Counted from the stretch's first letter, positions 20,572-55,651 are shown. The stretch is 64,000 bases of DNA from an uncultured Desulfobacterales bacterium (GCA_964452555.1 CAYVMI010000002.1:153414-217413), one strand, 5' to 3'. Program-made: numbers and translations. The notes: generated by a model not told the origin, from the sequence alone.

Positions 20572-22245
20572 ATGCATAAACGAAGCAATCTCATGACCCA
20601 GGGTGTTGAGCGGGCACCCCATCGATCTCTATTAAAGGCTGGCGGTATGACCGACCAGGAAATGGACAAACCCATCATCGGTATCGCCAATTCATTTAAT
20701 GAAATTATACCCGGGCATATCCACCTGGACAAGCTAGCCGAAGCCGTCAAGGCCGGTGTATATGCAGCCGGCGGTACGCCTTTGGTTTTCAACACCATCG
20801 GGGTATGCGACGGTTTGGCCATGAATCATGACGGTATGAAATATTCACTTCCCAGCCGGGAATTGATTGCGGATTCCCTTGAAATCATGGCCATGGCCCA
20901 TCCTTTTGATGGACTGGTACTCATGGCCTCCTGTGACAAGATTATTCCGGGTATGCTTATCGGTGCGGCCAGGCTCAATATTCCCGCCATATTTATTGCC
21001 GGGGGCCCCATGCTACCCGGTAAGGTGGCGGGAAAGGATGGGGGCTTGGATAAAGTTTTCGAAGCCGTGGGCCAATTGAAAAGCGGCCAGATCAGTGAAA
21101 ACGATATGAATGAATATGAATGTAGCGCCTGCCCAGGTGCTGGCGCCTGTTCCGGCATGTTTACGGCCAATACCATGGCCAACCTAAGTGAAGCTTTAGG
21201 CATGGCCCTGCCCATGAACGGCAGTACCCCGGCAGTGTTTTCGCAGCGTGTTTGGTTGGCCAAAGAAACCGGTATGCATGCCGTTTCCCTGGCCAAGCAA
21301 GGCATTCGGCCTCAAGACATCATGACCAAAGGGGCTTTTGAAAATATGATCGCTACGGATATGGCTTTAGGCGGTTCTACCAATTCAGTCTTGCACATTA
21401 CGGCGATTGCTTATTATGCCGGCGTCGAAATTGCATTAACAGATTTTGACCGCTTGGCCCAAAGGGTACCGCACCTCACTTCCATCGCGCCTGCCGGACC
21501 GCATCATGTAGTGGATCTGTATCAGGCCGGCGGGGTGCCGGCGATTCTGGCTGAATTGCAGAAAAACGATCTCATCAATGACGGGGAAATGACGGTAGTA
21601 TCAAAGCCCATGGGAGAGGTGCTTGCATCGATTCACGCCGGCGTCAAAGATCCCGGTGTGATTCGACCCATCGAAGATCCGGTTCACAGCACCGGTGGCC
21701 TGGCCGTTTTGCGGGGCAATATTGCGCCCGATGGCGCCATCGTCAAACAGGCTGCCGTGGCCGATGAAATGCTGCAACACACCGGTCCTGCCCGGGTGTA
21801 TCACTCTGAGGATGAGGCATTCGAAGCGATCATGGCAGGAGAAATACAAAAAGGTGAAGTGGTTGTTATCCGATTTGAGGGACCCAAGGGTGGGCCCGGA
21901 ATGCGCGAAATGTTGTCGCCCACATCGGCACTTGCCGGGATGGGTCTAGACAAAGACGTGGCCCTGATAACCGATGGACGCTTTTCGGGGGCCACACGGG
22001 GTGCGGCCATTGGGCATGTATCGCCTGAAGCGGCGTCAGGTGGCGCTATTGCCATAATCGCAAATGGGGATATGATCGCCATCGACATCCCCAACAAAAC
22101 GCTCAATGTGGAGCTTTCTCCAAGCGAGATGGAAAGCCGGCTGGAAAAACTGCCGCCATTTGAACTCAAAAAGAAGACCGGATATTTGGCGCGCTATGCC
22201 AAGCAAGTGAGCAGTGCCGATAAAGGCGCAGTCTTTGATTTATAG
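20572..22245 (+). CDS. ilvD: Dihydroxy-acid dehydratase
   Basis: [50 protein letters not shown]. Confidence 0.97.
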
Positions 22246-22299
22246 CTTTCAGGCATAAGATGTAAGCCATAAGCAGCTGATTGCTGAATGCTAATCGCT
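22244..22299. repeat. AGC-heptad palindrome
   Basis: agctttc aggcata agatgta agccata AGCAGCT gattgct gaatgct aatcgct. Confidence 0.8.
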
Positions 22300-22303
22300 T
22301 CCA

Positions 22304-22392
22304 GTTACGAAGCTAAAATTACCATAGGAAACTGTTTGAATCCCTTCAAAGCGTATATGGGGATGAGTCCGATTGTAGAATTGGGGATATCG
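22304..22392 (-). pseudogene. Decayed 3-prime fragment of a paralogue of the 22751-22996 gene
   Basis: Translates as IPNSTIGLIPIYALKG versus IPNSTVGLIPICDLKE in the intact gene. Confidence 0.7.
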
Positions 22393-22621
22393 GACTTTTG
22401 GGATTTTATTTTTAGAAGAAGGTGATGCGCAAAGTAAATATAATAAGATGAGAACGATTGAGGGTGGCCGAGAGAACCTTCTTAAGAAGATTAATATCGA
22501 CGACTATCTAAATTTCCTTCAGTATATTAATGGTATTAATTAATAGGAACTGCGCTATTAGGTGCTTTTTGCTTTTCGCTTAAAGCGTTATAAGTGATGA
22601 AATAGGGGAAGTTCAGGATCA

Positions 22622-22746
22622 AACGGTTTTGAAAAAAGTTCAAATTCAAGGTGTACAAATTTTGCAATCGTGAGGCGTACTGATTGTACGTTGAATGTTT
22701 GCGAAATTCTGTACAATGCCGAAGTTGGGCTTTTGGCGAAACCGTT
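22622..22746. repeat. Long imperfect palindrome, ACGGTTTT...GAAACCGT type
   Basis: Colinear with 61385-61509; contains TCAAGG, a GAGGCGTAC/GTACG hairpin and AATGCCG. Confidence 0.85.
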
Positions 22747-22750
22747 AAAC

Positions 22751-22996
22751 TTAAAATCCGAGTTGGGCTAACAAGTCCCGCCATTTAACATAAGGCACTG
22801 GTTTTATCTCTTTTAAATCGCAGATGGGGATAAGCCCGACCGTGGAATTGGGGATATAATAGCATTCCTGGCCTTTGAATTGGCCTTCCTTAATAATCCA
22901 ACCAGACTGTACAGCAATCCTTTTTCCGGCAAGGGTTTTGGCATCGTTGGAATATTCCAGATTTTCGGATGGATCGAATACGGCTTCAAAGTACAT
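22751..22996 (-). CDS. Hypothetical 81-aa protein
   Basis: RBS AAGGAG, plausible composition, adjacent paralogue remnant. Confidence 0.75.
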   Translation of the reverse strand: MYFEAVFDPSENLEYSNDAKTLAGKRIAVQSGWIIKEGQFKGQECYYIPNSTVGLIPICDLKEIKPVPYVKWRDLLAQLGF

Positions 22997-23130
22997 TTAT
23001 ATTCTCCTTTATTATAAACGCAATAAGCGCAAAGCTTACAGCGGTAAGCCGGTGATCGTTTATCGCTGTAAGCTTGGCGCTCATTTTTTGACATTGGTAA
23101 CATAATGAATAATTTTTGAAAGTCAAGTAG

Positions 23131-23316
23131 ATGCTATCTCAAAATTAAGATTAGCGGTTCCCCTCGACATGCTCGGGGTCGATGACACGATCAAGGTATG
23201 CGAAAAAAATTACCACAGGTATATACCTAATATTTCGAAGATTATTTTTTGAGCATAACGCATGATATCTACCCGCCGCAGTCGGGTCAGCCAAAAGATA
23301 TTTTTGAGATAGGTTC
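23131..23316. repeat. Palindromic element (CTATCTCAAAA ends) with nested motifs
   Basis: Terminal inverted repeats, internal TCAAGG...AACGCATG, embedded ccctcgacatgctcgggg. Confidence 0.8.
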
Positions 23317-23355
23317 TGGTTAATTATGAAATTCTAGAGGAACTGGGACAGGTTT

Positions 23356-24447
23356 ATGGCATTATCAATACCACGGGGTGGGTTCGAGCGACTCATACCC
23401 CAAATTCAGCACAATTGTGATCTGTCTGACGCCCGTTATGCTGGTTTGTATTCAGTTTGTGGCTTGGCACTCAGGCTTCGTGATTTATATAAATGGGAAA
23501 AGGGGCTCGCCCCCTGGGTAGAGAAAGAGCCCTCAGAGATTCTTGACTGGATTGGTTGCAAAGAAGAAGCCTGGGAAGAAATTCGAGATGAACCCTACCA
23601 GGATTTGGAAATAGATAACCATCAATTTGATCCCTTTGATACGCAGGCTTTAAACCAGCTCTTAAATAATCAGGGACTATTTTATGGCGCCGGATATGGC
23701 CGGGGGCTCAAACCAACTTTCTTTTTGGCGGAGATTATGGTGGACGATCAAGTCGATGATACACTCGTGTATTCTTTGGGTAAGGAGTTTGCCAGAGATC
23801 TGTTTGCCGTGCCGGCATTGACCCAAGACAACACCATATTGATCCGGCAGCAAATCGCGGAAGTTTATTTATGGGATCAGATGGTCTATATCAACAAATC
23901 CGGTCGTCGAGCTCTTGAATATGCTTTGAACCAAATGGGGCTGGGAGAGCAGGATCGCGCTGCTTGGAAATCTAATCTGACCGAATTGACCCGCGAGGTG
24001 ATGGGCATTTACCTACACCATGAGATGGGCGAACTTTCGGATGATAATATAGATCGGGAGCTCTGGCAGGAAATGATTGGGGCCTATCCGCGCTCATCCA
24101 TAGAGCTGTTTGCCCGGGCAATTAAAGATATTCTAGCGGATACCGGATCACGCGGTGCCCTACATTATATTTTAACTGAGCGAAGACCTGCATCCTTGGG
24201 TTTTTATGTGGCCTTTATGGAAGGGATGCACAAATCCTTGTTTCCGGAATTAGCGGTTGCGTTTGCAGATTTTGTCAAACATGAAGATTGGCGTTTAATC
24301 GATCGCACTGTAAAAACCGGGTTTGAAAAGATGCGTGGCTTAGCTGACCGAATGATAGCGCTTTTTCAACAAGGGAAGCAGATGCGTGATCTTAAGTGGG
24401 CCGAAGAAGCGTTGGTTGATCAATTGATCAAACCCCTAACGAGTTAG
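23356..24447 (+). CDS. Conserved hypothetical protein (Sfum_1244-like)
   Basis: QHNCDLSDAR.AGLYSVCGLALRLRDLYKWE, YGAG..RGLKPTFFL and HHEMGE motifs; family name from memory. Confidence 0.7.
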   Translation: MALSIPRGGFERLIPQIQHNCDLSDARYAGLYSVCGLALRLRDLYKWEKGLAPWVEKEPSEILDWIGCKEEAWEEIRDEPYQDLEIDNHQFDPFDTQALNQLLNNQGLFYGAGYGRGLKPTFFLAEIMVDDQVDDTLVYSLGKEFARDLFAVPALTQDNTILIRQQIAEVYLWDQMVYINKSGRRALEYALNQMGLGEQDRAAWKSNLTELTREVMGIYLHHEMGELSDDNIDRELWQEMIGAYPRSSIELFARAIKDILADTGSRGALHYILTERRPASLGFYVAFMEGMHKSLFPELAVAFADFVKHEDWRLIDRTVKTGFEKMRGLADRMIALFQQGKQMRDLKWAEEALVDQLIKPLTS

Positions 24448-24501
24448 CTGGCAGCTCTGAGATATAAGCAATAAGCAGCTTAGCGCTTATTACTTATGAC
24501 T
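24446..24501. repeat. AGC-heptad palindrome
   Basis: agctggc agctctg agatata agcaata AGCAGCT tagcgct tattact tatgact. Confidence 0.8.
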
Positions 24502-24600: not shown

Positions 24601-25185
24601 ATGGTTAACTACTCGAAAGGGAAAAATAAGCCCATCATCAACGGTATTCGCGTGGATTTGGCAGCGCTGCAGTCCATTAGCCATGACTGCCGGCCGGAGA
24701 TTTGTAAAAAACAACCCACCTGCTGCTTCCGCTATGTCCCGCACGTGAAGCCGGCCAAAATGGAAAAAATAGTGGGATGCTTCCCAACAGTTGCGAACTA
24801 TACCGACAGTATTAAGGAAGACGATGGGTTTAGAAACGTTTTTGAGGAATGGGAGGATGGCTCCTATCGCATCGATGCCAATGCAGATGAAGCCTGTATT
24901 TTTACCTATTTACTGGCATCAGGGGAAAAGCTTTGCAGCCTACATTCTGCCGCAATTGATTTGCATTTAAGCCCGGTAGCAATAAAACCGAGTGCCTGTT
25001 CTTTATGGCCGCTCATCCTTTTGGACGGCGCGACGCCAGAACTTTCCGTGGATAAAAATTGGCAAGCCTTTCCCTGCAATAATGACTCTGAGGATCCAGG
25101 CCATTTGGATGCGGGAGTGGCAAGTATTGTTAATGATTATTTTGGATCATCCTTTTTAGAGCAGTTGTTGAAATACGAAGAATGA
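24601..25185 (+). CDS. Cysteine-cluster protein (YkgJ/DUF3109-like)
   Basis: C-x4-C..CC, CIF, CSLH, KPSACSLWP, FPC. Confidence 0.75.
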   Translation: MVNYSKGKNKPIINGIRVDLAALQSISHDCRPEICKKQPTCCFRYVPHVKPAKMEKIVGCFPTVANYTDSIKEDDGFRNVFEEWEDGSYRIDANADEACIFTYLLASGEKLCSLHSAAIDLHLSPVAIKPSACSLWPLILLDGATPELSVDKNWQAFPCNNDSEDPGHLDAGVASIVNDYFGSSFLEQLLKYEE

Positions 25186-25191
25186 TTAAAA

Positions 25192-25247
25192 AGCTATCAG
25201 GTATGAGCCATCAGCAGCTTACTGCTGATTTCTCAAAGCTTACACCT
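25192..25247. repeat. AGC-heptad palindrome
   Basis: agctatc aggtatg agccatc AGCAGCT tactgct gatttct caaagct tacacct. Confidence 0.8.
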
Positions 25248-25278: not shown

Positions 25279-26772
25279 ATGAAAATACATTCATATATCA
25301 TAATATTCATCCTAATGCTCAGCATGATGGCCTGTGCCGCCCCGCTTACCCGAGTCAATACGGATGTATTCCTCAGGAATAGCCAGGCCGAAATTTTTTA
25401 TATTGAACTGGATAAAGTGATCCAAAAGTATGGGGTGTCCGATGCCAGCAGTTTCCCGGTAGATGGCTTTCCCTACCTGCGTACCAATCGATTTCTGGCC
25501 GGCATAAAGGATCAAATTGATTGGACCCAAAATGGTCGTCATTGGGCTCATCAGATGCTTAATCTTGGCTTGGCGTCCCGCCGTAAAGAGATCGCCAATC
25601 TCCCTGCGGGAGCTATCCAGGAGCTTTCCCAGGCACTTGGTCAGTCATTGGGCCGACAAATGATCATCCCAAAAGCCGAGGCTTATGCCCATCAATTGTT
25701 TGCAAGCGATCAAAGCCATCCCGAATTTCCGGATATGTTGCATAAGACCGTAAATGTACCGGACGAGTATTCTACGCTGGCACGCGTGATTGGAATTTAT
25801 CCACTGGCGGGCATTCCTGTCACCGTTGGTACGGCAGTAGCCTATAGCCGATATGAAAAATGGCATCAAACAGATCCATCTGATTTAGCGGTGTTGGGGA
25901 CATTGACCCAGTACCGGCCCAGTATGGTAGCTGATTCAGCGGATCCGGACTTTATCGACCAACTTTATGACCCCAATCATTTGGATGTCTTTGGTCTGCC
26001 CAAATTAACGTCCCAGGATGTGCAAAAGTTAGCACAAAGGTTTGCCCCGGTCATAGACCAAGACGTTGTTGAAGCCTATGACCGCATCGGTCGGATAACA
26101 TGGCAAAACAATCAGGTGATGGTCGATAACACACAACCGAGTGCCTATTATTACACTTCCCATAGCAAGCTGGGCGGGCATCCGGTTCTGCAATTGAATT
26201 ATACCTTTTGGTATTCGGAACGGGCCGGAAAAAACGCACCTTGGATGGAGCGCGGGCCCTTGGACGGCGTTACCTATCGGGTGACGTTGGACCAAACTGG
26301 CGCGGCAGTCATGGTGGACATTATGAACAGCTGTGGCTGCTATTTCTTTTTTGTTCCCCAAAAGGAATCCATTGCCAAGATTGTTACCAAACCCGGAGAA
26401 ATTGCACCCCTGGTTCCCACATGGATACCTCCCGAGTTTCCGCAAAAAAGGTTGGTTCTCAGAATCAATTCCGGATGGCACCAGGTACAGGGTATTATGA
26501 CCTCTGATGGTTCCCCAGACGTCCGAAGTTATGCCCTGATTCCTTATGAAGTATTGGAGTCCTTGCCAAAAGAAGATGGACAATATGCTAGTGTGTTCAC
26601 ATCTGCTGGAATTATGAAGGATTCGCGGCGAATCGAGCCCTACATCTTCTTTTCCATGGGCATCGCAGATATTGGATATATGCGTCAACGCGGCCATCAC
26701 GCCATTAAGATGGTGGGTCGGGGACACTTCACAGATCCAAACCTGTTTGACAATTCTTTTAAATTCCATTGA
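25279..26772 (+). CDS. Hypothetical lipoprotein
   Basis: Signal peptide ending MMAC; 497-aa ORF with NSCGC motif. Confidence 0.8.
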   Translation: MKIHSYIIIFILMLSMMACAAPLTRVNTDVFLRNSQAEIFYIELDKVIQKYGVSDASSFPVDGFPYLRTNRFLAGIKDQIDWTQNGRHWAHQMLNLGLASRRKEIANLPAGAIQELSQALGQSLGRQMIIPKAEAYAHQLFASDQSHPEFPDMLHKTVNVPDEYSTLARVIGIYPLAGIPVTVGTAVAYSRYEKWHQTDPSDLAVLGTLTQYRPSMVADSADPDFIDQLYDPNHLDVFGLPKLTSQDVQKLAQRFAPVIDQDVVEAYDRIGRITWQNNQVMVDNTQPSAYYYTSHSKLGGHPVLQLNYTFWYSERAGKNAPWMERGPLDGVTYRVTLDQTGAAVMVDIMNSCGCYFFFVPQKESIAKIVTKPGEIAPLVPTWIPPEFPQKRLVLRINSGWHQVQGIMTSDGSPDVRSYALIPYEVLESLPKEDGQYASVFTSAGIMKDSRRIEPYIFFSMGIADIGYMRQRGHHAIKMVGRGHFTDPNLFDNSFKFH

Positions 26773-27945: not shown

Positions 27946-27987
27946 AGCAATTAGCATTAAGCCGTAAGCATTAAGCTGCTTACGGCT
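27946..27987. repeat. AGC-heptad palindrome between convergent genes
   Basis: agcaatt agcatta agccgta agcatta AGCTGCT tacggct. Confidence 0.75.
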
Positions 27988-28318
27988 TTTTGTTTCTGAG
28001 TATGTAAATATATGCCTCGACGGTGAGATTGTTTTTGGTTTTAACATTGGTCAAAACGCGTTGGTATTCTTCACCTTCAAAATCATCCAGTTCATCCCAA
28101 TGCTCATCGAGATTTTCGGAACTAAAAAGGTATCCTTGGATAGTATCACCCGCATCATCCAAGACGATACCGGGATAACCCATTTCAGCTCCCCAACCTT
28201 GAGGCTTTAAATAGCCATTTACAGAGCCTTCTTCCCAGGTTCCACCAATAGCCGTCATAACATGCTCATTGGGTCCGCCTGGAATCAATGTTCCATATAC
28301 AAATAAGCGCTGTGTCAT
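27980..28318 (-). CDS. Gamma-glutamylcyclotransferase (AIG2-like)
   Basis: LFVYGTL, GYPG, LDDFEG..YQR. Confidence 0.9.
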   Translation of the reverse strand: MTQRLFVYGTLIPGGPNEHVMTAIGGTWEEGSVNGYLKPQGWGAEMGYPGIVLDDAGDTIQGYLFSSENLDEHWDELDDFEGEEYQRVLTNVKTKNNLTVEAYIYILRNKKP

Positions 28319-38022: not shown

Positions 38023-38059
38023 AAAAAACCGTAAGCAATGTGCTGCTTACGGCTTTTTA
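38023..38059. terminator. Hairpin flanked by A and T tracts; also a short AGC-heptad copy
   Basis: aaaaaa-ccgtaagca-atgtgc-tgcttacgg-cttttt. Confidence 0.65.
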
Positions 38060-38186
38060 TCTAAGTACTGTAGTTACCCTGTTAATGAGTCGTCATGGGC
38101 GAGGGCTTTTGGTTACCGCTTAAACCATAACCCCATCTTCAACCCGACACCCCAGAACCCCTTCAAACCTCCAACCCTCAGGATTT

Positions 38187-41375: not shown

Positions 41376-41394
41376 GACGGCCTCCAATATATCG

Positions 41395-41514
41395 GTGTTT
41401 AGTTTTAGGTGTTAGGTTTTAGGTTCGGATTTAGGCTGTAGTTTTTTAGACTGTAGGCAGCTGTAAGCAATTAGCTTTCAGCAGCTTACAGCTAATATCT
41501 TATAGCTTATCGCT
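41395..41514. repeat. GTTTTAG heptads followed by an AGC-heptad palindrome
   Basis: ttttagg tgttagg ttttagg ... agctgta agcaatt agctttc AGCAGCT tacagct aatatct tatagct tatcgct. Confidence 0.8.
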
Positions 41515-44162
41515 TAAAGAATATCATGTAATTTTTGAATCTGGTCTTCAAATTGGTCCCTGGAAAAGCAGTACTGCATTTCCAGGAAGTTTTTACGAAA
41601 TGAAGCCACTTCCGATTTAACGTCCCTGCCTTCCAGCAGAAGGTCTTTAAAAAGCTGCGCCAGGGTTTTAAAATCATCGGGCTGCATGCCAAAACGGGTC
41701 ATCTCCTGGACGCCCATCCGCAGCGATCCCGAGGCCGTAAAGCCCTCTTCGGCCGGAGCGGCCTGGTAGTTGACGATGAGGTTGTTGTCCTCCAGCCGTC
41801 GGGCGATTTCAGGTCCCTGGGCATAACCCACATTTAAGATCACCTGATGGGTTTCGGTAAACGATATGTCGGGATCCCCGGCCACACTCAAGCCACAGTC
41901 ATTGAGCGCTGCTGCAAAAGCGCGCGCGTTTTCGAGCACCTGTTTGGGGTATTGGTCCTTAAAATAGTTCATTTCGTAAGCCGCCATCAGCAAGGCCAGA
42001 ATGGTTCCCAGGTGATGGTTGCTGACGCTTCCCGGAAAGGCCCGGCGTTTGACGGCTTCCCACAAATCATATTTCGGATCGGCCTCATCCATATTCCCGG
42101 CGATAATTCCGCGTTGGGAACCGAAAAAAGTCTTGTGGGTGGACCCGGTGATGAAATCGGCGCCCTCTTTAAACGGTTCCTGAAAATAAGGACCGGCCAA
42201 ACCGAGAACATGCGCCATATCGTACATGATGATGGTGTCCAGGTTCAGCTGATCGATCATCCCGCGCACCGCCGCGACCGGCTCTTTGTGCAAAACCATG
42301 CTTTTGCCAAAAATAATCAGTTCAGGCTTATGTTTTTCAATCAGCGTTTCACAGGCTTCAAGGTCGATACAATAGGGGTTTTGCGGCAATACCGGGAAGT
42401 TGACCACGGCCGGTTTTTCCGAGAGGGGATCGCGGGCCACAAAATCGCGCAAGGCGCCCATGGGCTGCGCACTCAAATGTCCCCCGCGAATGATGTGGTT
42501 GTTGAGGACTTTCCGCAGCCGCCGCTGCTCACTCTTGCGATCGGCACGATTGATATAATCCAGCATGGCGCTAAACAGGGCCATGTTGGCCATTTGGCCG
42601 GATACCACACGGGTTTCAACCTGTTGACAGCCAAAAAACGTCTGTAAGGCGGATTCCAGTCGATCTTCCACTTCGGCAATGAAATCGGTCCCCTGGTAAT
42701 AAAAAACTTCGGCTTCGCTGAAGGCGCCCACCTGTTTGTGCTCGGCATAGCGACCGCAGGGATCCATGATGGAAAGCCAGCGTACCAGCGCGGACTGGGT
42801 TTGTTCGGACGGGATCAGATTGATACATTCGGTCTGACGCCAGCGGGTGTTTTCAACGGATTTTTCAAGCAAGGTCTGAACGTTCTTATGAATGTCGTCG
42901 CTGATCTGCGATTCACGCTCTTGACCGATCTGATCCCAGGGTATCGACCGGGCGTAAGGGGGCGCCTCGCTACGCATATGATAGGGTACGATAACCGCCG
43001 GAGTTTGCTTGTTACGGATTTGAACCTGGATATCATCGCCTTCCAGCAGCGTACTATCCAAAAGGGCCAGACAAATGCCTCTGAGTTCATGATTTTGGGT
43101 CAATTTGGAGAAAATGCCCTGACCTTCGATTTCCCAACGGGGCACCATGGTGCCGCTGGTGATATAGCCCACATGGCGGTCGCCCTGAAAGACTTTATAA
43201 CCGGCCCGGGCCACCCCTTTTTTCTTGAGGGCCACCGGCATGATCCTGCGCGGTAGGTCATCGATTCTCGAAAAGTCCTGGTCAATGATCAGCTTGAGTG
43301 CCTCAAACTGCTTTTGCAGGGCCTCCCGGCCGATAAATTGATTTTTCAATGGCGACAGACTGACGGCAAACCGGGACAAGGGGGACGCATAAACAGGTAT
43401 TTCCCTGTCTTCCGGGTCAAGACCCAATTCGTGGCCGTAAAGCGGTAAGCTGGCTTCCAAGCGCAGGGTGTCTCGGGCCCCCAGTCCGACCGGGCGGGCA
43501 CCCTGATTCACCAGGCTGTCCCAAACAGCCAGGGTGTCGGCGGTATCCATGAACAATTCGAAACATAGGGGTTCACCGGTGTAACCGGTGCGGGCGATCG
43601 AGACCTTTTTGCCCTGAATGCTGCCAAACCCGAGGCAATTACGCATGGGATCGGGTAGATCCGGGGAATCCAGCAGCTTTAGCAGTATATCTTTAGATTC
43701 GGGCCCCTGGAGGCTCAACATGGAAACATCGTTGGTAATATTCTCAAGGGTGACATCGTCAAAATTGCCCAGGTGAGCCTGGAAATGGTCCCAATCCTTG
43801 CTGCTGTTGGCTGCGTTGACGACCAGCAAGTATTCATCGGCATAAAAACGATAAAGATAGGCGTCATCGACGGCACCGCCATTTTGATTGGGTATCAGGG
43901 TGTACTGGCTTTCGCCTTCTTCCAAACCGGCCGCGTTGTTGGAAAGCACATGCTGCAAAAAGGCCAAGGCATTGGTTCCGCGAAACCGGAAGCGCCCCAT
44001 GTGGGACACGTCAAACAGCCCGGCATGCCGCCGCGTGGCCAGATGTTCCTGTAAAATCCCTTGGGAATACTGAATCGGCATACTCCAGCCGCCAAAGCCA
44101 ACCATCTGAGCGCCCAGTTCAACGTGGCGATCGTGCAAGGTGGTTTTATTTAGACTTTCCAT
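41514..44162 (-). CDS. gcvT: GcvT aminomethyltransferase fused to serine hydroxymethyltransferase
   Basis: LFDVSHMG, ARTGYTGE, GLGARDTLRLEA; then INLIPSE, GGHLS, DMAH, STHKTFFGSQRG. Confidence 0.93.
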   Translation of the reverse strand: MESLNKTTLHDRHVELGAQMVGFGGWSMPIQYSQGILQEHLATRRHAGLFDVSHMGRFRFRGTNALAFLQHVLSNNAAGLEEGESQYTLIPNQNGGAVDDAYLYRFYADEYLLVVNAANSSKDWDHFQAHLGNFDDVTLENITNDVSMLSLQGPESKDILLKLLDSPDLPDPMRNCLGFGSIQGKKVSIARTGYTGEPLCFELFMDTADTLAVWDSLVNQGARPVGLGARDTLRLEASLPLYGHELGLDPEDREIPVYASPLSRFAVSLSPLKNQFIGREALQKQFEALKLIIDQDFSRIDDLPRRIMPVALKKKGVARAGYKVFQGDRHVGYITSGTMVPRWEIEGQGIFSKLTQNHELRGICLALLDSTLLEGDDIQVQIRNKQTPAVIVPYHMRSEAPPYARSIPWDQIGQERESQISDDIHKNVQTLLEKSVENTRWRQTECINLIPSEQTQSALVRWLSIMDPCGRYAEHKQVGAFSEAEVFYYQGTDFIAEVEDRLESALQTFFGCQQVETRVVSGQMANMALFSAMLDYINRADRKSEQRRLRKVLNNHIIRGGHLSAQPMGALRDFVARDPLSEKPAVVNFPVLPQNPYCIDLEACETLIEKHKPELIIFGKSMVLHKEPVAAVRGMIDQLNLDTIIMYDMAHVLGLAGPYFQEPFKEGADFITGSTHKTFFGSQRGIIAGNMDEADPKYDLWEAVKRRAFPGSVSNHHLGTILALLMAAYEMNYFKDQYPKQVLENARAFAAALNDCGLSVAGDPDISFTETHQVILNVGYAQGPEIARRLEDNNLIVNYQAAPAEEGFTASGSLRMGVQEMTRFGMQPDDFKTLAQLFKDLLLEGRDVKSEVASFRKNFLEMQYCFSRDQFEDQIQKLHDIL

Positions 44163-44872: not shown

Positions 44873-45132
44873 AATAAAATCGCTCCGCGATTTTATGGGA
44901 CGCGATTTCATCGCGTATTATTCTTTTGGCATAAATCTCTATAATTTTTAGGTGCTCTTTATGGATAAGTCAATAAAAATTAAAAATATTCAGGAAATGA
45001 TTAAATTGTCGATAAATTTTTATCAAATCGATCAATTTCGTGCAGCTATCAGCTTTGAGGTATAAACCATATGCTGTTTGTGGAACAAAAGTTAATTTTA
45101 TTTTGACTTTTAACATTGAATTCGTTAAGTGT

Positions 45133-48002: not shown

Positions 48003-48076
48003 ATAGGGTTTTAGGTTTTAAGTTTTAGGTTTTAGAATGGCCTAACGACAGGAGTTATCAGCGATAAGCCCCAATG

Positions 48077-48246
48077 AATTACGCCCGCAGGGCAAGTGAC
48101 AATAAATAACGCGCGAAGCGCAAATCTCGCCCGTAGGGTAAATGACCAAGAATGACAGCCGTAGGCGTAATGACGCGCGCAGTGCAAATTACATTCTAAG
48201 AACGAATGTCGTCCGAAGGACAAATGTCGCCCGAGGGGCAAATGAC
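48077..48246 (+). repeat. Array of seven AATGAC-stem-GNA-stem mini-hairpins
   Basis: GCCC-GCA-GGGC, GCGC-GAA-GCGC, GCCC-GTA-GGGT, AGCC-GTA-GGCG, GCGC-GCA-GTGC, GTCC-GAA-GGAC, GCCC-GAG-GGGC. Confidence 0.85.
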
Positions 48247-48409
48247 AATACTCCGGAAAGGTTGGAGGGTATGAGGTTTGAAGGGTTGAAGGGTAAGGCC
48301 TTTGCTTTCGGCCATTTGTAACCAAACAAACCCAATAATCTCAATGAACCCAACAAACAATTATCAATTTTCTGGATATTTCGTAACATGGTCAGGAGAT
48401 AGATATTTA

Positions 48410-49069
48410 ATGAGAAATCAGGTTAAAAGCAAACCCACCCGCAGTGAACTCAGACGGAAGCGCGAAAGAGAGCAACGTTTCCTGTCCATATTGGATGCTG
48501 CTGAAAATCTTTTTGCAAAAAAAGGCTATCACCATACGAGTATGGAAGAGGTCGCGGATCTGGCTGAGGTGTCTGTGGGGACGGTATACTTTTACTTTAA
48601 AAACAAAGAAGATCTCATTTCCCAGATGCTCGAAAAAATCGGATTTCAGCTGCGCAATCTCTTGGGAAGGGAATTCGAAAATGCCGATGGCAGCATTGAA
48701 GGGTTTAAACGGGCCGGCATCCTTTTTTTTGAAGAATTCTGTCTCCATCATCCCCAGAAGGTGGCCATCCTTTTCAGAGAGTCGGCTGGTCAGAGCAATC
48801 GGCTGGAGGAGCATCGCAAGCAAATTTTTGAAAAACTGATCCAGGATGTACAAAAGGCATTGATTCGGGTGGGCGACAATCTCAAGGTAGGCTATCAAAG
48901 CCCATATTCACCGGAAGTCATGGCGGTAAGTATCATGGGGATGTATGAACGCATCGCTTATCAATATCTCATTTGGCAAAACCGGCCCGATGATCTTAAA
49001 ACCATAGGACGGGATGCTGTCGATTTCATTGTCGGCGGAATACTTAATCTCAGTAACAAACGGTTTTAG
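48410..49069 (+). CDS. TetR/AcrR family regulator
   Basis: ILDAAENLF...GY..TSMEEVA..AEVSVGTVYFYFKNKEDL; RBS AGGAG upstream. Confidence 0.93.
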   Translation: MRNQVKSKPTRSELRRKREREQRFLSILDAAENLFAKKGYHHTSMEEVADLAEVSVGTVYFYFKNKEDLISQMLEKIGFQLRNLLGREFENADGSIEGFKRAGILFFEEFCLHHPQKVAILFRESAGQSNRLEEHRKQIFEKLIQDVQKALIRVGDNLKVGYQSPYSPEVMAVSIMGMYERIAYQYLIWQNRPDDLKTIGRDAVDFIVGGILNLSNKRF

Positions 49070-49142
49070 GTTTTAAGTTTTAGGTTTTACGTTTGTCTAT
49101 CAGTTGTTCGCTACCTAATACCTAACACCTAACACCTAAAAC
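49063..49142. repeat. GTTTTAG / CTAACAC heptad inverted pair
   Basis: gttttag gttttaa gttttag gttttac ... ctaatac ctaacac ctaacac ctaaaac. Confidence 0.75.
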
Positions 49143-50095: not shown

Positions 50096-51868
50096 ATGGC
50101 TGAGACAAAACCCAACGAAAAACAGAGACTGATCGTCGCCAACTGCAGCGGTTTTTTTGGCGATCGTTTTACCGCCGCCCAGGAGATGGTGCAGGGTGGT
50201 CCCATCGATTTTTTAACCGGCGATTATCTGGCTGAGTTGACCATGGCAATTCTGCTGCGAAAGCAGCTAAAGGATCCCAATGCAGGCTATGTTTCAACTT
50301 TTTTAAAACAGATGGAAGCCGTCATGGGTGAATGTCTGGATAAGCAAATCCGGGTGGTATCCAACGCCGGCGGCCTCAATCCGGCATCCTTGGCCACGGA
50401 ACTTCAAGCTACTGCTGAGAAGCTGGGCCTGCATCCCAAAATTGCCTATATCGAAGGGGACAACCTCCTACCCCGGTTGGGAGAACTTCAAGAGCTCGGT
50501 GAGTCGTTTGACCATCTGGACAAGGGGATTGCACTCAAGGATGCCCAGGCACAACCCATCTCGGCCAATGCGTATTTAGGTTGCTGGGGTATTGTGGAAG
50601 CACTGAATAAGGGTGCCGACATTATTGTCGGCGGACGCCTGGCCGATGCCGCTCTGGTAATGGGGCCGGCCGCATGGCATTTTAAATGGCAACCAACAGA
50701 TTGGGACCAACTGGCAGGGGCAGCCGTTGCCGGTCACGTCATCGAGTGTAGCGCCCAGGCCACCGGCGGTAATTACTCATTTGTAGATGAAGTTCCTTCA
50801 TTTAAGAATGTCGGATTCCCCATTGCCGAGATGGAAGCAGATGGCGCCGCAACCATCACCAAGCATCCCCATACCGGCGGCCTCGTATCCATCGGCACCG
50901 TAACGGCCCAGCTCTTATATGAAGTTCGCGAGCCCAGCTATTTGACGCCGGATGTAATCGCCCGTTTCGACACCATTGATATTTCCGAAGAGAGTACTGA
51001 CCGCGTGCGAATTCAAGGTGTTAAAGGAGAGCCCCCCACCCAGACCAGTAAGGTATGCATCAATAATCTGGGTGGATATCGCAACAGCATGACCATCGTG
51101 CTGGCCGGCCTGGATATTGAGAAAAAAGCAGAGATTGTAACCGAGGCCTTATTTGAAAGCATTGGTGGGCGCGAAGCCTTTGCCGTGAGTGATGTCCAGT
51201 TGATTCGATCCGATAAGGTCGATCCCGATATTAATGAGGAGGCATTTGCGCATTTGCGTTTGTCGGTTATGGACCCGGATCCCAAGAAGGTGGCCCAGTT
51301 TTCAGCAAAGCTGGTGGAACTGGCCTTGGCCAATATCCCCGGTTTTACAGCCACAGCACCGCCAGCCAAAGGTACGCCAGCAGTTATGCATTGGCCCGCC
51401 TTGGTATCAAATCAGCATATCCAGCAAGCAGTCCATATTGACGGTGAGACCATTCTAATTGCCGCGCCCACGTCGGTTGCCGATCAAGTATCCCTTGAAG
51501 TTAACAGTCGTACCATACCCAGCCTGCCTGAATCGAAACATGTGCCGGTGGCTTTCGGAAAAGCATTTGCCACCCGCAGCGGCGACAAGGGCGGCAATGC
51601 CAATTTAGGTGTATGGGCCAAAACGCCGCTCGCATATGCATTTTTGCGTGAGTATCTGACGGTAGAAAGGCTTAAACGCTTGCTGGCGGACCTGAAGGAA
51701 TTCGATATCGAGCGTTATGAATTGCCAAATCTTCTGGCAGTCAATTTCTATATCAAGGGTATTTTGGGCGATGGCGTGGCGGCTTCCATGCGAAGCGATC
51801 CCCAGGCAAAAACATTGGGAGAATATTTGCGGGCTAAGATGGTCGAATTACCAGAAGTAATCCTTTAA
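50096..51868 (+). CDS. AtuA-family acyclic terpene utilisation protein (DUF1446)
   Basis: SGFFGDR, DYLAELTM, GHVIEC, QLLYE, TPDV, RSGDKGGNAN.G, DPQAKTLGE. Confidence 0.9.
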   Translation: MAETKPNEKQRLIVANCSGFFGDRFTAAQEMVQGGPIDFLTGDYLAELTMAILLRKQLKDPNAGYVSTFLKQMEAVMGECLDKQIRVVSNAGGLNPASLATELQATAEKLGLHPKIAYIEGDNLLPRLGELQELGESFDHLDKGIALKDAQAQPISANAYLGCWGIVEALNKGADIIVGGRLADAALVMGPAAWHFKWQPTDWDQLAGAAVAGHVIECSAQATGGNYSFVDEVPSFKNVGFPIAEMEADGAATITKHPHTGGLVSIGTVTAQLLYEVREPSYLTPDVIARFDTIDISEESTDRVRIQGVKGEPPTQTSKVCINNLGGYRNSMTIVLAGLDIEKKAEIVTEALFESIGGREAFAVSDVQLIRSDKVDPDINEEAFAHLRLSVMDPDPKKVAQFSAKLVELALANIPGFTATAPPAKGTPAVMHWPALVSNQHIQQAVHIDGETILIAAPTSVADQVSLEVNSRTIPSLPESKHVPVAFGKAFATRSGDKGGNANLGVWAKTPLAYAFLREYLTVERLKRLLADLKEFDIERYELPNLLAVNFYIKGILGDGVAASMRSDPQAKTLGEYLRAKMVELPEVIL

Positions 51869-51993
51869 CCTAACTTAAACGATTGCCGATATCACCGCAT
51901 CTACGGTGTCAGATGTGATGCCGCATAGGATACTATAGCGACATCGCATCTTCCTTGTATCTACGGCAATCTCAACAATCGATCAAGTTAGGT
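51868..51993. repeat. Long palindromic element (ACCTAACTT...AAGTTAGGT)
   Basis: Terminal inverted repeats; internally deleted relative at 54285-54354. Confidence 0.75.
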
Positions 51994-52170
51994 CTAGTAT
52001 GACCAAGGTATAACCTTTTGAACCTAAAATATTGTGGAAGGCAATGATTAGCGTACGTCAAATTCGCAGCGGAATGAAGCGCAACGCAGCCTGTCAGACC
52101 GAAGCCTATGGGTGAAGTCGGAAAATTGGGCTATTTACGAAGCAATCAAAATTTAAAAAAGGGGAAGTTC

Positions 52171-52596
52171 ATGAGCTACACCAAAGGGCTTACATTCGAA
52201 GAGATCGAAATCGGTGACAGCGATTCATTCTCCAAAACCATCAGCGAGTCGGATGTTTATTTATTTGCAGGGTTAAGCGGGGATTTTAATCCCATGCATG
52301 TGAATGAAGAATATGCCAAAAGCACACCTTTCAAAAGACGGATCGCTCATGGTCCTTTAACCCAAGGTCTAATCGCCCCGGTCCTGGGAACAAAGCTTCC
52401 GGGCTTGGGAACCATCGCCTTGGAGATCAAAACGCGGTTTCGCGCACCGACTTTTATTGGCGACACCATAACGGCCAGCGCCAAAGTATCTGAAAAATTG
52501 CCGGAAAAAAAGTGGGTACGAATGGATCTGAGCTTGACGAATCAAAAAGGAGAGTTGGTGGCCGAGGGTGAGGTGCTGGTCATGCCGCCGGTGTGA
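52171..52596 (+). CDS. MaoC family dehydratase
   Basis: FAGLSGDFNPMH, IAHG, PTFIGDT. Confidence 0.93.
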   Translation: MSYTKGLTFEEIEIGDSDSFSKTISESDVYLFAGLSGDFNPMHVNEEYAKSTPFKRRIAHGPLTQGLIAPVLGTKLPGLGTIALEIKTRFRAPTFIGDTITASAKVSEKLPEKKWVRMDLSLTNQKGELVAEGEVLVMPPV

Positions 52597-52683
52597 TCGA
52601 TCTGGCCAGAATATTTTCTGTTTTTATTTATTTTAGGTGGCAATCAAGCTATCGGCCGCTAGTTTGAAAAAACTTTGTTTCCT

Positions 52684-52872
52684 AACATCGAACGTCCAAC
52701 ATCCAACGTCGAAGGAAAAAAACAGGATTTAGGGGTGAAGGTTTGAAGGGGTGGCGGGTCAGTAATTAGCGTTTAGCTCTAAGCAGCATCCAAGCATCCT
52801 AGCATCCCGGCTTTAAAGCTGTTGATAATGGTTCCTTCGATGTTCAGTGTTCGATGTTCAATGTTGGAAGTT
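52684..52872. repeat. AACATCG heptad inverted pair enclosing other periodic repeats
   Basis: aacatcg aacgtcc aacatcc aacgtcg ... cgatgtt cagtgtt cgatgtt caatgtt. Confidence 0.75.
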
Positions 52873-52940
52873 AATTTTTTATAAAGCTTTATATTATAGC
52901 TATGAGCCGTAACATTATAAATTAACAAGGGTTATACATT

Positions 52941-54122
52941 ATGAGCTACGCATTTAACACCCAAGCTTCAAGCCAGGAGTATTTTAGCAAAGCCCACGAT
53001 TTGGTACGACGATCGGTCAAGGAATTCGTTGATCAAGAGATTCTGCCGCATATCGATGACTGGGAGGAGGCCGGTGAATTTCCGCGAGAACTTTATCAAA
53101 AAGCAGCCGATGTGGGCATTCTCGGTATTGGTTACCCCGAAGAATATGGCGGAATTCCAGGCGATATTTTTTTTCGGGTCGTGGTTACCGAGGAATTGAT
53201 GCGATCCGGATCGGGTGGTTTGGCTGCCGGTATCGGTTCCCTCAATATTGCTTTACCGCCAATTTTATCCTTGGGGACCGATGTTCAAAAAGAACGCTTT
53301 ATTACGCCGGTCCTCGCGGGCGAAAAAATTGCTGCCCTGGCGGTGACCGAGCCTGGTGGGGGATCCGATGTGGCCAACCTAGAGACCACCGCGGTGCGTG
53401 AGGGCGATCACTACCGGGTCACTGGCAGTAAAACTTTTATCACCAGCGGTTACCGGGCAGATCAGATCACCTGTGCTGTGCGTACCGGTAAAACTGGTGC
53501 TCATGGCATTAGCCTGCTTATAATTGAATCAGACACGCCTGGATACAGTGTATCTGATAAACTTAAAAAAACGGGATGGTGGGCTTCGGACACGGCCCAG
53601 ATTTTTTTGGATGACTGCTTGGTTCCGGTGGAGAATCTTATCGGCGAGGAAAACCAAGGGTTTTACGGTATCATGGAAAATTTTCAGGGAGAACGCTTAG
53701 CCCTGGCAATCATGGCCAATATGACCTCGCAAATGGCTTACGAGGCCTGTCTTGAATATGTTAAGGAGCGGGAAGCGTTCAATCGAAAACTACAAGGATT
53801 TCAGGTAATTCGTCACAAGTTGGTTGATATGGCCACCCGACTGGAAGCCAGCCGCGAATTTACGTATCGGATAGCTGCTAAAATTGATGCCGGACACGAC
53901 CAGGTTAAAGAAATCAGTATGGCAAAGAATTTTGCCTGCGAAGTGAGTGACAAAATTACCTATGATGCCGTACAGATATTTGGTGGTTATGGGTATATGC
54001 GCGGTTACTTGGTGGAAAGGTTGTTTCGAGACAACAGGATTCTATCTATTGGTGGCGGTACAACGGAAATTATGAAGGAAATCATCAGTTCTTTTCTATT
54101 CGAAAAGGGTTTTAAGTTATAA
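52941..54122 (+). CDS. Acyl-CoA dehydrogenase (AtuD-like)
   Basis: AVTEPGGGSDVA, GSKTFITSG, NFQGERL, IGGGTTEIMK. Confidence 0.92.
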   Translation: MSYAFNTQASSQEYFSKAHDLVRRSVKEFVDQEILPHIDDWEEAGEFPRELYQKAADVGILGIGYPEEYGGIPGDIFFRVVVTEELMRSGSGGLAAGIGSLNIALPPILSLGTDVQKERFITPVLAGEKIAALAVTEPGGGSDVANLETTAVREGDHYRVTGSKTFITSGYRADQITCAVRTGKTGAHGISLLIIESDTPGYSVSDKLKKTGWWASDTAQIFLDDCLVPVENLIGEENQGFYGIMENFQGERLALAIMANMTSQMAYEACLEYVKEREAFNRKLQGFQVIRHKLVDMATRLEASREFTYRIAAKIDAGHDQVKEISMAKNFACEVSDKITYDAVQIFGGYGYMRGYLVERLFRDNRILSIGGGTTEIMKEIISSFLFEKGFKL

Positions 54123-54169
54123 GCTTGCAGTCATCAGCAGCTTATAACTGTGGCTTATGGCCTAGAGCT
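54115..54169. repeat. AGC-heptad palindrome
   Basis: agttata agcttgc agtcatc AGCAGCT tataact ... Confidence 0.7.
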
Positions 54170-54176
54170 TTTTAAA

Positions 54177-54204
54177 TTGACAACATAATCAAGGAGATTA
54201 TAGT
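54177..54204 (+). promoter_or_regulatory. Sigma70-like promoter
   Basis: TTGACA-16 nt-TATAGT. Confidence 0.6.
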
Positions 54205-54235
54205 AGTCGTTGTACAAAAATTGGCTGAAATCGGG

Positions 54236-54262
54236 GCCTATGCATCTGGTATAGGCTTTTTT
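54236..54262 (+). terminator. Intrinsic terminator
   Basis: GCCTATGC-atctg-GTATAGGC followed by TTTTTT. Confidence 0.65.
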
Positions 54263-54371
54263 ATTTCACTCTAATACCGAGTACGTTGGGATTGCCGATT
54301 TTGCCGCATCTACATCGTACCTAGCAGCAATCTCAACAATCGCTCAATTTAGGGACTTTCATATCGAAAAG

Positions 54372-55589
54372 ATGGATTCTATGCCTCCAAAAAACTTCCT
54401 CGGTGACGCGATCAGCATTAAGCTTAAGCTGATGGGATTGCAATTATTGGTGATCTGCTTTTTCCTCCAAGTTCCTTTGACAGCCTGGTCCGGAGACAGC
54501 CCTAAAAAAGAGAAGATTCCAGGTTCGCTAAATCCGGTCTTTGAGCATCTTCTGGTCATAAACAGTCCGGATGGCGCACTGCCTCTGGATCCTAAAATGA
54601 TCAATGATCTTGCGGCCTTCGTGCTGGCTTCCAAGAAAGAAGATCGTTTTTATTATACAGATGGTCCTTTTGAGATGACTTCAGCCTATCATGAGTTTAC
54701 ATTTGATAAAGATCTAGCCCAGATCCTGAAGCTAGCCTACAATCCAAAGCTGCCCTCATTTTTTACCAATCCGTCCTCAATCAGGCTATCCTATTGGACC
54801 CGTTTTGAAGATGGTCGCAAAGAAATGCCAAAATTATGGGAATTCCTGGACGGCGGTGAGCTACCGATCATAGCCAGAGGTCATGAAATCGTCGAAAATA
54901 CTCCGGATCTCAATACGGGTGGATACTATCGCTATGGATTGGATCGCACCTTGATTCTGACCAAGCATCAAGGCAATAACGTTTTGATATCACTTAGTAA
55001 ACAGACTGAGGCATCAGACATAGGTAAAAAAGGTTTGGTCTTGGGTTCCGATGATGATTGGAACTATCTTTACTCTGGCAAGAAGGGGCTCAACAAGTCA
55101 GGGCTGGGCTGGGTAAAGTCGTATATGTATGATTCCGTTTCGGCAGTCGTCTATTATGAGGTTCCGGGCGAAACACCGCAAGTTAAATGCGGCGCTTTCA
55201 AATGGCTTAATGCCGGCTGGCGCAAAATCAACATGGTGAAAGAACATCATATTCACAAAGGACTGTTACGCTACGCCCAGGCCTTTAAAGCCGTAGTGGA
55301 GAATCCAAACCTACCGGAAGTATCTGTTATGGCTGATACATTTGACAGAATTGAGACCATGGAAATCGGAAAACTGCAGCAAGTATATCTGGCTTATTTA
55401 GAATCGTTTCGTGAAGATAACGTTGACAATAAGGCACTGTCTAACGGCTGGATAGCTGATATCTTATCCGACGGGCAGGTGGAAAATATGGATCCGCGTG
55501 AACTGCGGGCCGCCATCATGCTGGACTACATTAAAAGTTTGCTGGGAAAACCGCATTATATTGATGCCGCAAAATTGGGATACCAATAG
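54372..55589 (+). CDS. Hypothetical exported protein
   Basis: 405-aa ORF with a signal-like hydrophobic stretch; start uncertain. Confidence 0.75.
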   Translation: MDSMPPKNFLGDAISIKLKLMGLQLLVICFFLQVPLTAWSGDSPKKEKIPGSLNPVFEHLLVINSPDGALPLDPKMINDLAAFVLASKKEDRFYYTDGPFEMTSAYHEFTFDKDLAQILKLAYNPKLPSFFTNPSSIRLSYWTRFEDGRKEMPKLWEFLDGGELPIIARGHEIVENTPDLNTGGYYRYGLDRTLILTKHQGNNVLISLSKQTEASDIGKKGLVLGSDDDWNYLYSGKKGLNKSGLGWVKSYMYDSVSAVVYYEVPGETPQVKCGAFKWLNAGWRKINMVKEHHIHKGLLRYAQAFKAVVENPNLPEVSVMADTFDRIETMEIGKLQQVYLAYLESFREDNVDNKALSNGWIADILSDGQVENMDPRELRAAIMLDYIKSLLGKPHYIDAAKLGYQ

Positions 55590-55595
55590 AAAATT

Positions 55596-55651
55596 AGCTT
55601 GCAGCGGTCAGCTCTAAGCAGCTTAATGCTTAGTGCCGAAGGCTTATGACC
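55596..55651. repeat. AGC-heptad palindrome
   Basis: agcttgc agcggtc agctcta AGCAGCT taatgct tagtgcc gaaggct tatgacc. Confidence 0.8.

Follow-up and report, generated by a model that had tools for sequence, protein, structure and literature searches.

Short inverted repeats at the ends of genes raise the question of whether they act on the DNA, act on the transcript, or are merely carried along. This question is posed here by a 64,000-nt stretch (the window) of an uncultured, sulfate-reducer-type Desulfobacterales genome (GCA_964452555.1, CAYVMI010000002.1:153414-217413), located on contig C2 of the source genome G000 (5.91 Mb, 112 contigs, 47.8% G+C, completeness 93.7%). A sequence-only reading of the window had pointed to dispersed palindromes at gene 3' ends, in which AGC-type heptads converge on a central AGCAGCT or AGCTGCT and then turn into GCT-type heptads. 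These palindromes, termed AGC elements in the following, are real, occur far beyond chance and constitute a strongly non-random repeat family, which is new, restricted to one genus, and of a repeat type that was recorded earlier but never explained. The interpretation ranked first, and held tentatively, is that of a REP-like (repetitive extragenic palindrome) family of 3' or intercistronic stem-loops of the inverted tandem-repeat array kind, built like the arrays of Geobacter metallireducens and like the heptamer repeats of cyanobacteria.

Enrichment and Anatomy of the Heptad Palindromes

The motif AGN5AGN5AGCWGCTN5CTN5CT is matched exactly at window positions 22258, 24460, 25199, and 41466 and with one mismatch at 27960, 54122, and 55603, but not once in 100 dinucleotide-preserving shuffles of the window. 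All seven copies described as clear in the sequence-only reading are thereby recovered with at most one mismatch. The genome-wide search that had been proposed beforehand as a check (at least two AG heptads, AGCWGCT, at least two CT heptads) yielded 39 non-overlapping matches in the whole of G000, compared to 0, 0, and 0 in three third-order Markov simulations. The four sites listed as partial (38030, 45044, 49978, and 52768) turned out to be weaker (Table 1).

Alignment of the 39 matches on their centres gives the unit A-G-C-n-n-T-(A in 60%, C in 25%), i.e., TAAGCnn, in which the positions that are not forced by the search expression (the C of AGC, the T, and the A) are strongly conserved as well. 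The phased signal is present at -3, -10, -17, -24, and -31 and gone at -38, which corresponds to five units per side and none at the sixth place. An element is approximately 56-63 nt long and comprises four to five TAAGCnn units, directly followed by four to five nnGCTTA units, both converging on AGC-W-GCT.

A heptad profile scan of G000, in which arms of at least three units were collected and converging arms with a gap of at most 28 nt were taken as compact pairs, resulted in 430 arms and 69 compact pairs, 68 of them unique. The gap is divisible by seven in 60 of the 69 pairs, hence one register is kept through the centre. The central base pair is A·T in 41 out of 46 strict elements. Polarity is fixed, since at least two GCTNA motifs follow 32 of 47 strict left arms and precede only one of the 47. 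When 41 elements are compared at 25 variable positions, their pairwise identity equals the column-shuffle null, and neither subfamilies nor near-identical copies are found. Adjacent heptads share the same nn 147 times, compared to 96±9 times after shuffling, in an arm set that includes other, uniform repeat families.

Placement at Gene Ends and Contact with Stop Codons

Except for one, all 66 G000 elements with neighbours on both sides are intergenic, with 46 in co-directional, 13 in convergent, and 6 in divergent spacers. With 59 out of 65 in co-directional or convergent spacers, the family resembles REPs and REPINs in being a short, extragenic, imperfect palindrome that is present in multiple copies and mostly 3' of genes. 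Many elements occupy intercistronic gaps within strings of co-directional genes. Divergent spacers hold fewer elements than would be expected from the 22% of intergenic bases that they make up (6 out of 65 elements, p=0.005), but the deficit is not significant when measured against spacer counts (p=0.14).

The tie to stop codons is strong. Flanks facing a stop lie within 10 nt of it or contain it in 29 of 72 cases, versus 5.4% under uniform insertion into spacers (p ~1e-18); counted by element, contact with a stop was found for 28 of the 59 with such a flank, and 19 include the stop codon itself. In the window, the stop falls within the outermost heptad at 22244, 24446, 41514, and 54120 and 4-12 nt upstream of the elements at 25192, 27946, and 55594. 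At the ilvD, gcvT, and site C (55594) loci, the orthologous genes likewise terminate within the first heptad (TAG-C, TAA-GC, or TGA-GC). Read inward, 49 of 136 arms close all three frames, compared to 18 of 136 when read outward, and all frames are closed from both sides in 35 of 68 elements. Most likely the contact is tolerated because TAAGC, TGAGC, and TTAGC carry stops, which the 7-nt pitch rotates through the frames.

Predicted Folds and the Relation to Terminators

Across the axis of symmetry, the five core bases of each unit pair by virtue of the consensus, and for the two nn bases pairing is exactly as frequent as column composition predicts. The earlier statement that the spacer bases mostly do not pair is therefore in agreement with the data, whereas the conclusion that the elements make poor hairpins holds only in part, as the conserved cores do pair. 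The predicted minimum free energy of the RNA has a median of -18.9 kcal/mol (z = -3.6 versus shuffles; 69 compact pairs, 68 unique), and some members are predicted to form perfect stems of 17-21 bp with the register shifted by half a unit. If arms are swapped between elements, the energy changes from -23.7 kcal/mol for real pairs to -21.7 kcal/mol for swapped ones (p=0.01), a cost of only about 2 kcal/mol, and 10 of 68 real elements are more stable than all 8 of their swaps, versus about 7.6 expected. Since swapping costs so little, it is the consensus of the family that accounts for the hairpin, and not a complementarity specific to each element.

In 120 distinct elements retrieved from metagenome contigs (see below), pairing of nn is at chance level whichever register is taken, and there is no covariation. 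Each element keeps to a single core variant (TAAGC, TCAGC, or TTAGC), in both arms and for any pair of heptads, and nn is random. An apparent covariation at the fourth core base was discarded, as it reflects this element-wide uniformity and not position-specific pairing. The nn pair adjoining the centre pairs below chance (19 out of 120 versus 35.5 expected). We suggest that the core is conserved without covariation, and uniform within each element, because whole heptads come and go.

Placement downstream of genes would also be expected from ordinary Rho-independent terminators that share their stem sequence by chance. Two window members, at 27946 and 38030, do consist of a perfect, G+C-rich stem followed by a U-run, and the stem at 27946, next to a rubrerythrin gene, is conserved in the relatives G008, G004, and G009. 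For the family as a whole, this origin is highly unlikely. A run of at least four T within 12 nt of an arm was found for only 13 of 68 elements and on both sides for none, hence most elements are not canonical terminators. Furthermore, the aligned profile lacks T enrichment beyond the arms, the stems are A/T-rich and interrupted by regular 2x2 mismatches, and many elements lie between co-directional cistrons. A search of both strands of the window against Rfam at gathering threshold gave no match.

Distribution across Genomes

Occurrence in other genomes was counted with a 21-nt core pattern (AGCNNTNAGCWGCTNANNGCT), the reversed version of which gave no match in any genome. The pattern occurs 41 times in G000 and 3, 4, 26, 67, 32, 50, 56, 27, and 24 times, respectively, in genomes of nine other species of the genus. 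Five genomes of two sister genera in the same family contain no match, and among 198 other genomes sampled from the order a single one is positive, with two matches. Thus the family is genus-restricted: it is present in 10 out of 10 genomes of the genus, with an approximately 20-fold range in copy number (3-67 matches), and is hardly found elsewhere in the order. A scan of all species genomes returned at least 117 stretches, and among the matches listed the only recurrent genomes are metagenome-assembled genomes titled uncultured delta proteobacterium or Desulfobacterales; as the chance expectation is estimated at about 1,000 matches in 596 Gb, singletons are at about chance level and only recurrent genomes are informative.

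With a longer, 35-nt pattern, at least 121 matches were obtained in metagenome contigs, representing 120 distinct elements. These environmental elements, among the matches listed, reproduce the TAAGCnn unit. Their arms comprise 3 (33 arms), 4 (76), 5 (102), 6 (21), 7 (3), and 9 (1) units, with the mode at five and four arms cut by contig ends. The 35-nt pattern has no match in viral contigs, and a phage origin was rejected on this basis.

Turnover at Orthologous Sites

At the ilvD site, the element is present in G000, G006, and G009 and absent in G008, the closest relative (82-87% identity), and in G002. In the three carriers, the ilvD stop is the TAG, TAA, or TGA of the first heptad, and the length of IlvD equals that in the non-carriers. 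G006 and G009 are more distant than G008, yet they carry an element, with unrelated nn and a different centre. Because the element is absent from the closest relative and unrelated in the distant carriers, independent insertions are possible.

The spacer between gcvH and gcvT contains an element in G000, G004, G006, G007, and G009 with differing heptad numbers, and central inserts of 80-190 nt are found in G004, G007, and G009. In G008 (C80:12450-12900), the AGC element is replaced by a palindrome that belongs to another family (TTTGTTT/GGGTT... facing AACTCAATAAACCC), from which we conclude that repeat families replace one another at a fixed site. In the window, the AGC palindrome of this spacer is adjoined by a GGTGTTA/TTTAGGT heptad array (41394-41425), which is conserved in G004, G006, G007, and G009.

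Site C (55594..55651) is occupied in G000, G004, G006, and G007, with the stop in the first heptad in G004 and G007. G009 keeps approximately one heptad, which looks like a deletion, and G008 has other repeat families at this site. At the rubrerythrin site (27946), the same perfect stem and T-rich tail occur in G000 and G008, with related perfect stems in G004 and G009. In case of the element at 24446, the left arm is kept in G008 and the right arm is replaced by about 400 nt. Inserts accepted by the centres range from 12 to 190 nt across orthologous sites. The elements are thus inherited, gain or lose whole heptads, accept central inserts, and are sometimes lost or replaced.

Four-Helix-Bundle Genes, Transposases, and Mobility

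Tandem Repeats Finder detected 645 period-7 and 408 period-8 arrays of many different units in G000, and the period-7 arrays peak at four copies. Furthermore, G000 encodes 17 members of PF05635, the four-helix-bundle family of 23S intervening sequences (IVS), most of which are bracketed by inverted heptamer or octamer arrays; five relatives encode 11-23. The sequence-only reading had pointed to similar heptads flanking IVS-type genes and had noted that no such gene lies in the window. The latter is correct, with no PF05635 member among 58 window ORFs (open reading frames). The former is true of G000 but not of the AGC family, for which arms were found at a single one of the 17 genes (C47, uniform TAAGCAG) and, as a borderline case, at one of 50 loci in five relatives. 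Twenty AGC arm pairs with long gaps (37-1633 nt) were considered as cassettes and rejected, as only the pair on C47 encloses a PF05635 gene and the others are neighbouring separate elements. Across the genus, four-helix-bundle gene counts, obtained with differing E-value cut-offs, do not track element counts (e.g., 15 genes and 3 elements in G001, 5 genes and 50 elements in G006).

The only Y1-transposase match in G000 (PF01797, 34.6 bits; C8:34540-34860) has no AGC arrays within about 2 kb, for which reason a link to RAYT transposases, as known for REPs, was rejected. Outside the arms, the aligned profile contains no terminal tetranucleotide tag of the GTAG/CGTC type and only the TAAGCnn periodicity.

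These observations bear on the possibility that the AGC elements are gene-less mobile cassettes similar to MITEs (miniature inverted-repeat transposable elements), with a preference for stop codons and with arms that are the ends of an element whose relatives carry cargo, e.g., IVS-type genes. A footprint of a mobile or recombination system had already been suggested in the sequence-only reading, and the copy range of 3-67 in ten genomes next to none in five genomes of the sister genera, as well as the presence and absence at orthologous sites such as ilvD, lend it weak support. Also in line with a cassette are the different repeat family in the same spacer of G008, the central inserts of 12-190 nt, the defined element size, and the bracketing of most of the 17 four-helix-bundle genes by inverted arrays of other units. 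However, comparison of filled and empty sites (the ilvD site as well as the site C and rubrerythrin comparisons) revealed no target-site duplication, and the apparently empty site C of G009 retains part of an element. Near-identical copies and subfamilies are lacking, as similarity at the variable positions equals the column-shuffle null, and neither the near absence of AGC arms from four-helix-bundle loci, nor the unlinked transposase, nor the absence from viral contigs is what a cassette would predict. On balance, we regard this explanation as unlikely.

A more far-reaching idea is that each inverted-array family in G000 is the cognate site of one Avd-like four-helix-bundle paralogue, the AGC palindromes being gene-less sites served in trans within a large protein-repeat system extending over many phyla. 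Avd is a pentamer. The idea is based on the 17 genes in G000, most of which lie between arrays of "their" unit, and on the mode of five units in AGC arms; we consider it very improbable.

A Phased Binding Platform as a Possible Alternative

The sequence-only reading had proposed a phased platform for a multimeric DNA- or RNA-binding protein. In this case, the TAAGC core would be the binding site of an oligomeric protein, repeated at a 7-base pitch with four to five converging sites per arm, either on DNA or on folded RNA. Several properties of the family are well accounted for in this way. Five of seven unit positions are conserved in sequence and the other two vary without covariation; the core is held independently at each site, and no two of 41 elements share variable bases beyond the null. 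In 60 of 69 pairs the two arms share one heptad phase through the centre, polarity is fixed, and in 120 independent elements arms of five units are the most frequent. That the two strands show no asymmetry (see below) suits recognition of double-stranded DNA, and for the analogous arrays of Geobacter, binding of unidentified global regulators was proposed in the part of the genome report that deals with them (PMC2700814).

Against the platform stands the observation that 645 period-7 and 408 period-8 arrays of unrelated units share the same layout in G000, which would call for many specific proteins or for none. No candidate protein has emerged, and the counts of four-helix-bundle genes fail to track those of the elements. 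Moreover, each element uses one core variant throughout but different elements use different ones, which is easier to reconcile with pairing or common descent than with one fixed specificity, and divergent, i.e., promoter-containing, spacers are avoided. Hence conserved cores without covariation, strict phase, fixed polarity, and the modal five units speak for the earlier proposal, and the recurrence of the same architecture in many other G000 families speaks against it; a binding platform appears improbable to us, to the same degree as the mobile cassette.

Comparison with Known Repeat Systems

The closest counterparts are classes 1-3 of the paired "predicted global regulator binding sites" of G. 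metallireducens (Aklujkar et al. 2009, PMC2700814), which in the portion of that report devoted to them are proposed, without a test, to bind unidentified global regulators. According to the same portion, these are likewise multicopy intergenic pairs on opposite strands, with three to five tandem units of 7-9 nt per site; class 3 consists of five heptanucleotides MTYCTGA, and some sites lie between genes of one operon (PMC2700814). The units given there (GTTGCTYN, TCTCCGTS[Y], and MTYCTGA) differ from TAAGCnn, thus the kind is the same but the family is different (PMC2700814). The spacing of Geobacter pairs is described there as variable, whereas the arms of AGC elements abut on AGC-W-GCT and have two free positions per unit; the stop-codon contact seen here is not reported in that portion (PMC2700814).

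Within G000, the PF05635 cassettes are similar in having four to five short tandem units per arm, inverted orientation, and intergenic or intercistronic placement. Their arms use GGTTTTA, AGAAGTC, GGATTC, and other units around a gene of about 120 codons, whereas the AGC family encloses nothing. In the operators of the omega repressor of Inc18 plasmids, 7-bp heptads follow one another without gaps, in direct as well as inverted orientation; each has a conserved core of 5 bp with less strictly kept edges and is bound by one dimer. They are promoter or centromere sites on plasmids, whereas the heptads described here are chromosomal and located at gene 3' ends; no omega-like protein was found, though no search aimed at one was made. 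Sites of TRAP, to which the sequence-only reading had likened the heptads, are single-stranded triplets in direct orientation in 5' leaders. Short conserved words at a fixed pitch with free spacer bases are common to both, but the analogy fits poorly, since the heptads form inverted, self-complementary arrays at 3' ends.

REPs of enterobacteria are single palindromes of 20-40 nt with tags of the GTAG/CGTC type, are tied to RAYT transposases, and act as stabilisers of mRNA 3' ends. In contrast, an AGC element is a phased heptad array without tag, and the only Y1-transposase match is unlinked. As far as described in the relevant part of a report on REPs and BIMEs (bacterial interspersed mosaic elements), these resemble the AGC elements in being short, extragenic, imperfect palindromes with tens to hundreds of copies, mostly 3' of genes and many near stops (PMC12306157). 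In E. coli, the same part states, many REPs are located no more than 15 nt from a stop, where they cause ribosomes to stall and reduce translation (PMC12306157).

Integron attC sites and DNA-uptake sequences were considered improbable and dropped, as the genes concerned are common housekeeping genes at dispersed positions and a core of 5 nt is not long enough. The short tandemly repeated repetitive (STRR) heptamers of cyanobacteria and the "long simple sequence repeats" consist of one exact unit, mostly in direct orientation; in AGC elements, two of seven bases vary and arms form converging inverted pairs of limited length. Common to both, judging from the pertinent section of the literature, are short, mostly intergenic tandem heptanucleotides of lineage-specific and sporadic occurrence (PMC4679880), and heptamers are quoted there as the commonest unit length among long simple sequence repeats (Mrazek 2007, via PMC4679880). 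In the literature outside subscription journals, no publication on TAAGCnn palindromes or on repeat-bounded four-helix-bundle cassettes was found.

Members in the Window and Neighbouring Features

The members of the family in the window and their relation to neighbouring genes are compiled in Table 1.

Table 1. AGC elements and related sites in the window (positions counted from the first nucleotide of the window; strand as recorded).
Position	Strand	Type	Genomic context and remarks
22244..22299	.	compact heptad palindrome	AGCTTTC AGGCATA AGATGTA AGCCATA AGCAGCT GATTGCT GAATGCT AATCGCT; first heptad holds TAG stop of ilvD (ORF 20572-22245)
24446..24501	.	compact heptad palindrome	first heptad holds TAG stop of DUF6866 gene (ORF 23356-24447)
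25192..25247	.	compact heptad palindrome	6 nt past stop of ORF 24601-25185, 32 nt ahead of ORF 25279-26772
27946..27995	+	left-arm heptads, then perfect 11-bp stem (AAGCCGTAAGC / GCTTACGGCTT) and T-run; terminator-like	12 nt past rubrerythrin stop (27933)
38028..38060	.	simple hairpin CCGTAAGC-8 nt-GCTTACGG; terminator-like relative with one TAAGC/GCTTA pair	A-runs and T-runs at its flanks
41459..41516	.	compact heptad palindrome	between gcvH (start 41387, minus) and gcvT-SHMT fusion ORF (41514-44162, minus); TTA of last GCTTA is the TAA stop of the fusion ORF
45044..45064	+	solitary AGC arm, 3 heptads	partner arm absent
49978		mixed array	
52768..52788	+	AGC arm of 3 heptads fused to AGCATCC array	within larger inverted AACATCC/GATGTTC array pair
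54118..54169	.	degenerate heptad palindrome	TAA of first TAAGC is the stop of acyl-CoA dehydrogenase ORF (52941-54122)
55594..55651	.	degenerate heptad palindrome	4 nt past TAG stop of ORF 54372-55589; convergent gene opposite

The AGC arm at 52768 lies in a mosaic in which four repeat families are nested. Inverted AACATCC/AACGTCC and GATGTTC arrays (52684-52710 and 52836-52865) surround approximately 125 nt, in which arrays of the GGGGTGAAGG type, the AGC type, and AGCATCC follow. Further inverted arrays in the window use other units. Mutually complementary octamer arrays at 2831-2862 and 4073-4105 (AAGGATTC and CTTGAACC, four copies each) bracket 1.2 kb that hold an ordinary enoyl-CoA hydratase gene (3112-3924), i.e., a housekeeping gene as "cargo". 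The arrays at 48007-48035, 49062-49094, and 49113-49139 include GGTTTTA arrays on both sides of a TetR gene (48302-49069), the TAG stop of which lies in the first heptad; opposite the second GGTTTTA array, about 20 nt away, is an inverted ACCTAAC array, which is the layout of the AGC family with another unit. Between a GGTTTTA array and a GAAGGGTT array, several hairpin-like units of about 18 nt (consensus AATGTCGCCCGAAGGACA and variants) are located at 48040-48250.

Two dispersed MITE-like repeats were also observed. Of the repeat at 22595-22757, each genome of the genus and some others carry dozens of copies with 80-90% identity, and that at 23122-23327 has at least 8 copies in G000. Two unusual ORFs represent gene fusions: the minus-strand ORF 41514-44162 (882 aa) combines aminomethyltransferase (GCV_T) and serine hydroxymethyltransferase (SHMT), and the plus-strand ORF 14045-17800 (1251 aa) a HAD hydrolase and a GH65 glycoside phosphorylase.

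Interpretation and Significance

The stem-loop interpretation is ranked first because the placement, the contact with stop codons, the consensus hairpin, the terminator-like members, and the uniformity of the core within elements all fit. According to this interpretation, an element at a gene 3' end or between cistrons would be transcribed together with the gene, and the transcript would fold into a long, imperfect stem-loop with 5-bp TAAGC:GCUUA helices separated by 2x2 mismatches. Such a stem-loop may act as a 3' barrier, i.e., in mRNA 3'-end protection, processing, or partial termination, and where it overlaps the stop it may slow translation termination, as in case of E. coli REPs within 15 nt of the stop. 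Outward-facing TAAGC units would supply TAA, TGA, or TAG in shifting frames, which would allow the element to sit on a gene end. Given gain and loss of heptads, every core would have to pair with every core of the other arm and the core would be frozen; the unpaired nn would drift freely and keep the DNA palindrome imperfect.

Several points weigh against the stem-loop interpretation. Transcription through the elements and the position of the 3' ends are assumptions, and the placement figures are based on crude gene calls (longest non-overlapping ORFs of at least 90 aa, obtained with our own script rather than a gene finder), by which 84% of G000 is ORF. About half of the elements are more than 10 nt away from any stop, and most lack the T-runs of terminators, as mentioned above. 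In 46 co-directional cases, the sense strand folds more stably in 21 and less stably in 25 (p=1.0), there is no excess of G-U pairs on the sense strand (84 versus 98), and the orientation of the centre is unbiased (19 versus 16); due to the lack of asymmetry in fold, G-U pairs, and centre, there is no signature of selection on one transcript strand. Finally, the hairpin constraint alone leaves the fixed polarity and the peaked arm length unexplained. A binding platform explains these two properties and the strand symmetry better. The stem-loop, the platform, and the mobile cassette are not mutually exclusive but compatible with one another.

The observation made in the sequence-only reading is confirmed. 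In several bacterial phyla, intergenic space is filled by short tandem repeats in inverted arrays, which genome papers have noted from at least 2009 on. In this context, the AGC family represents a clean study case due to its strict phase, five fixed and two free bases, fixed polarity, peaked size, and strong tie to stop codons. The approximately 20-fold contrast in copy number within one genus allows trans-acting maintenance of repeats to be tested by comparative genomics, and whether a hairpin placed on a stop codon tunes expression is a question open to simple reporters. If true, the assignment of arrays to Avd paralogues would mean a large, undescribed protein-repeat system across many phyla. 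If the elements are merely tolerated selfish DNA, they would show how a repeat colonises gene ends by bringing its own stop codons.

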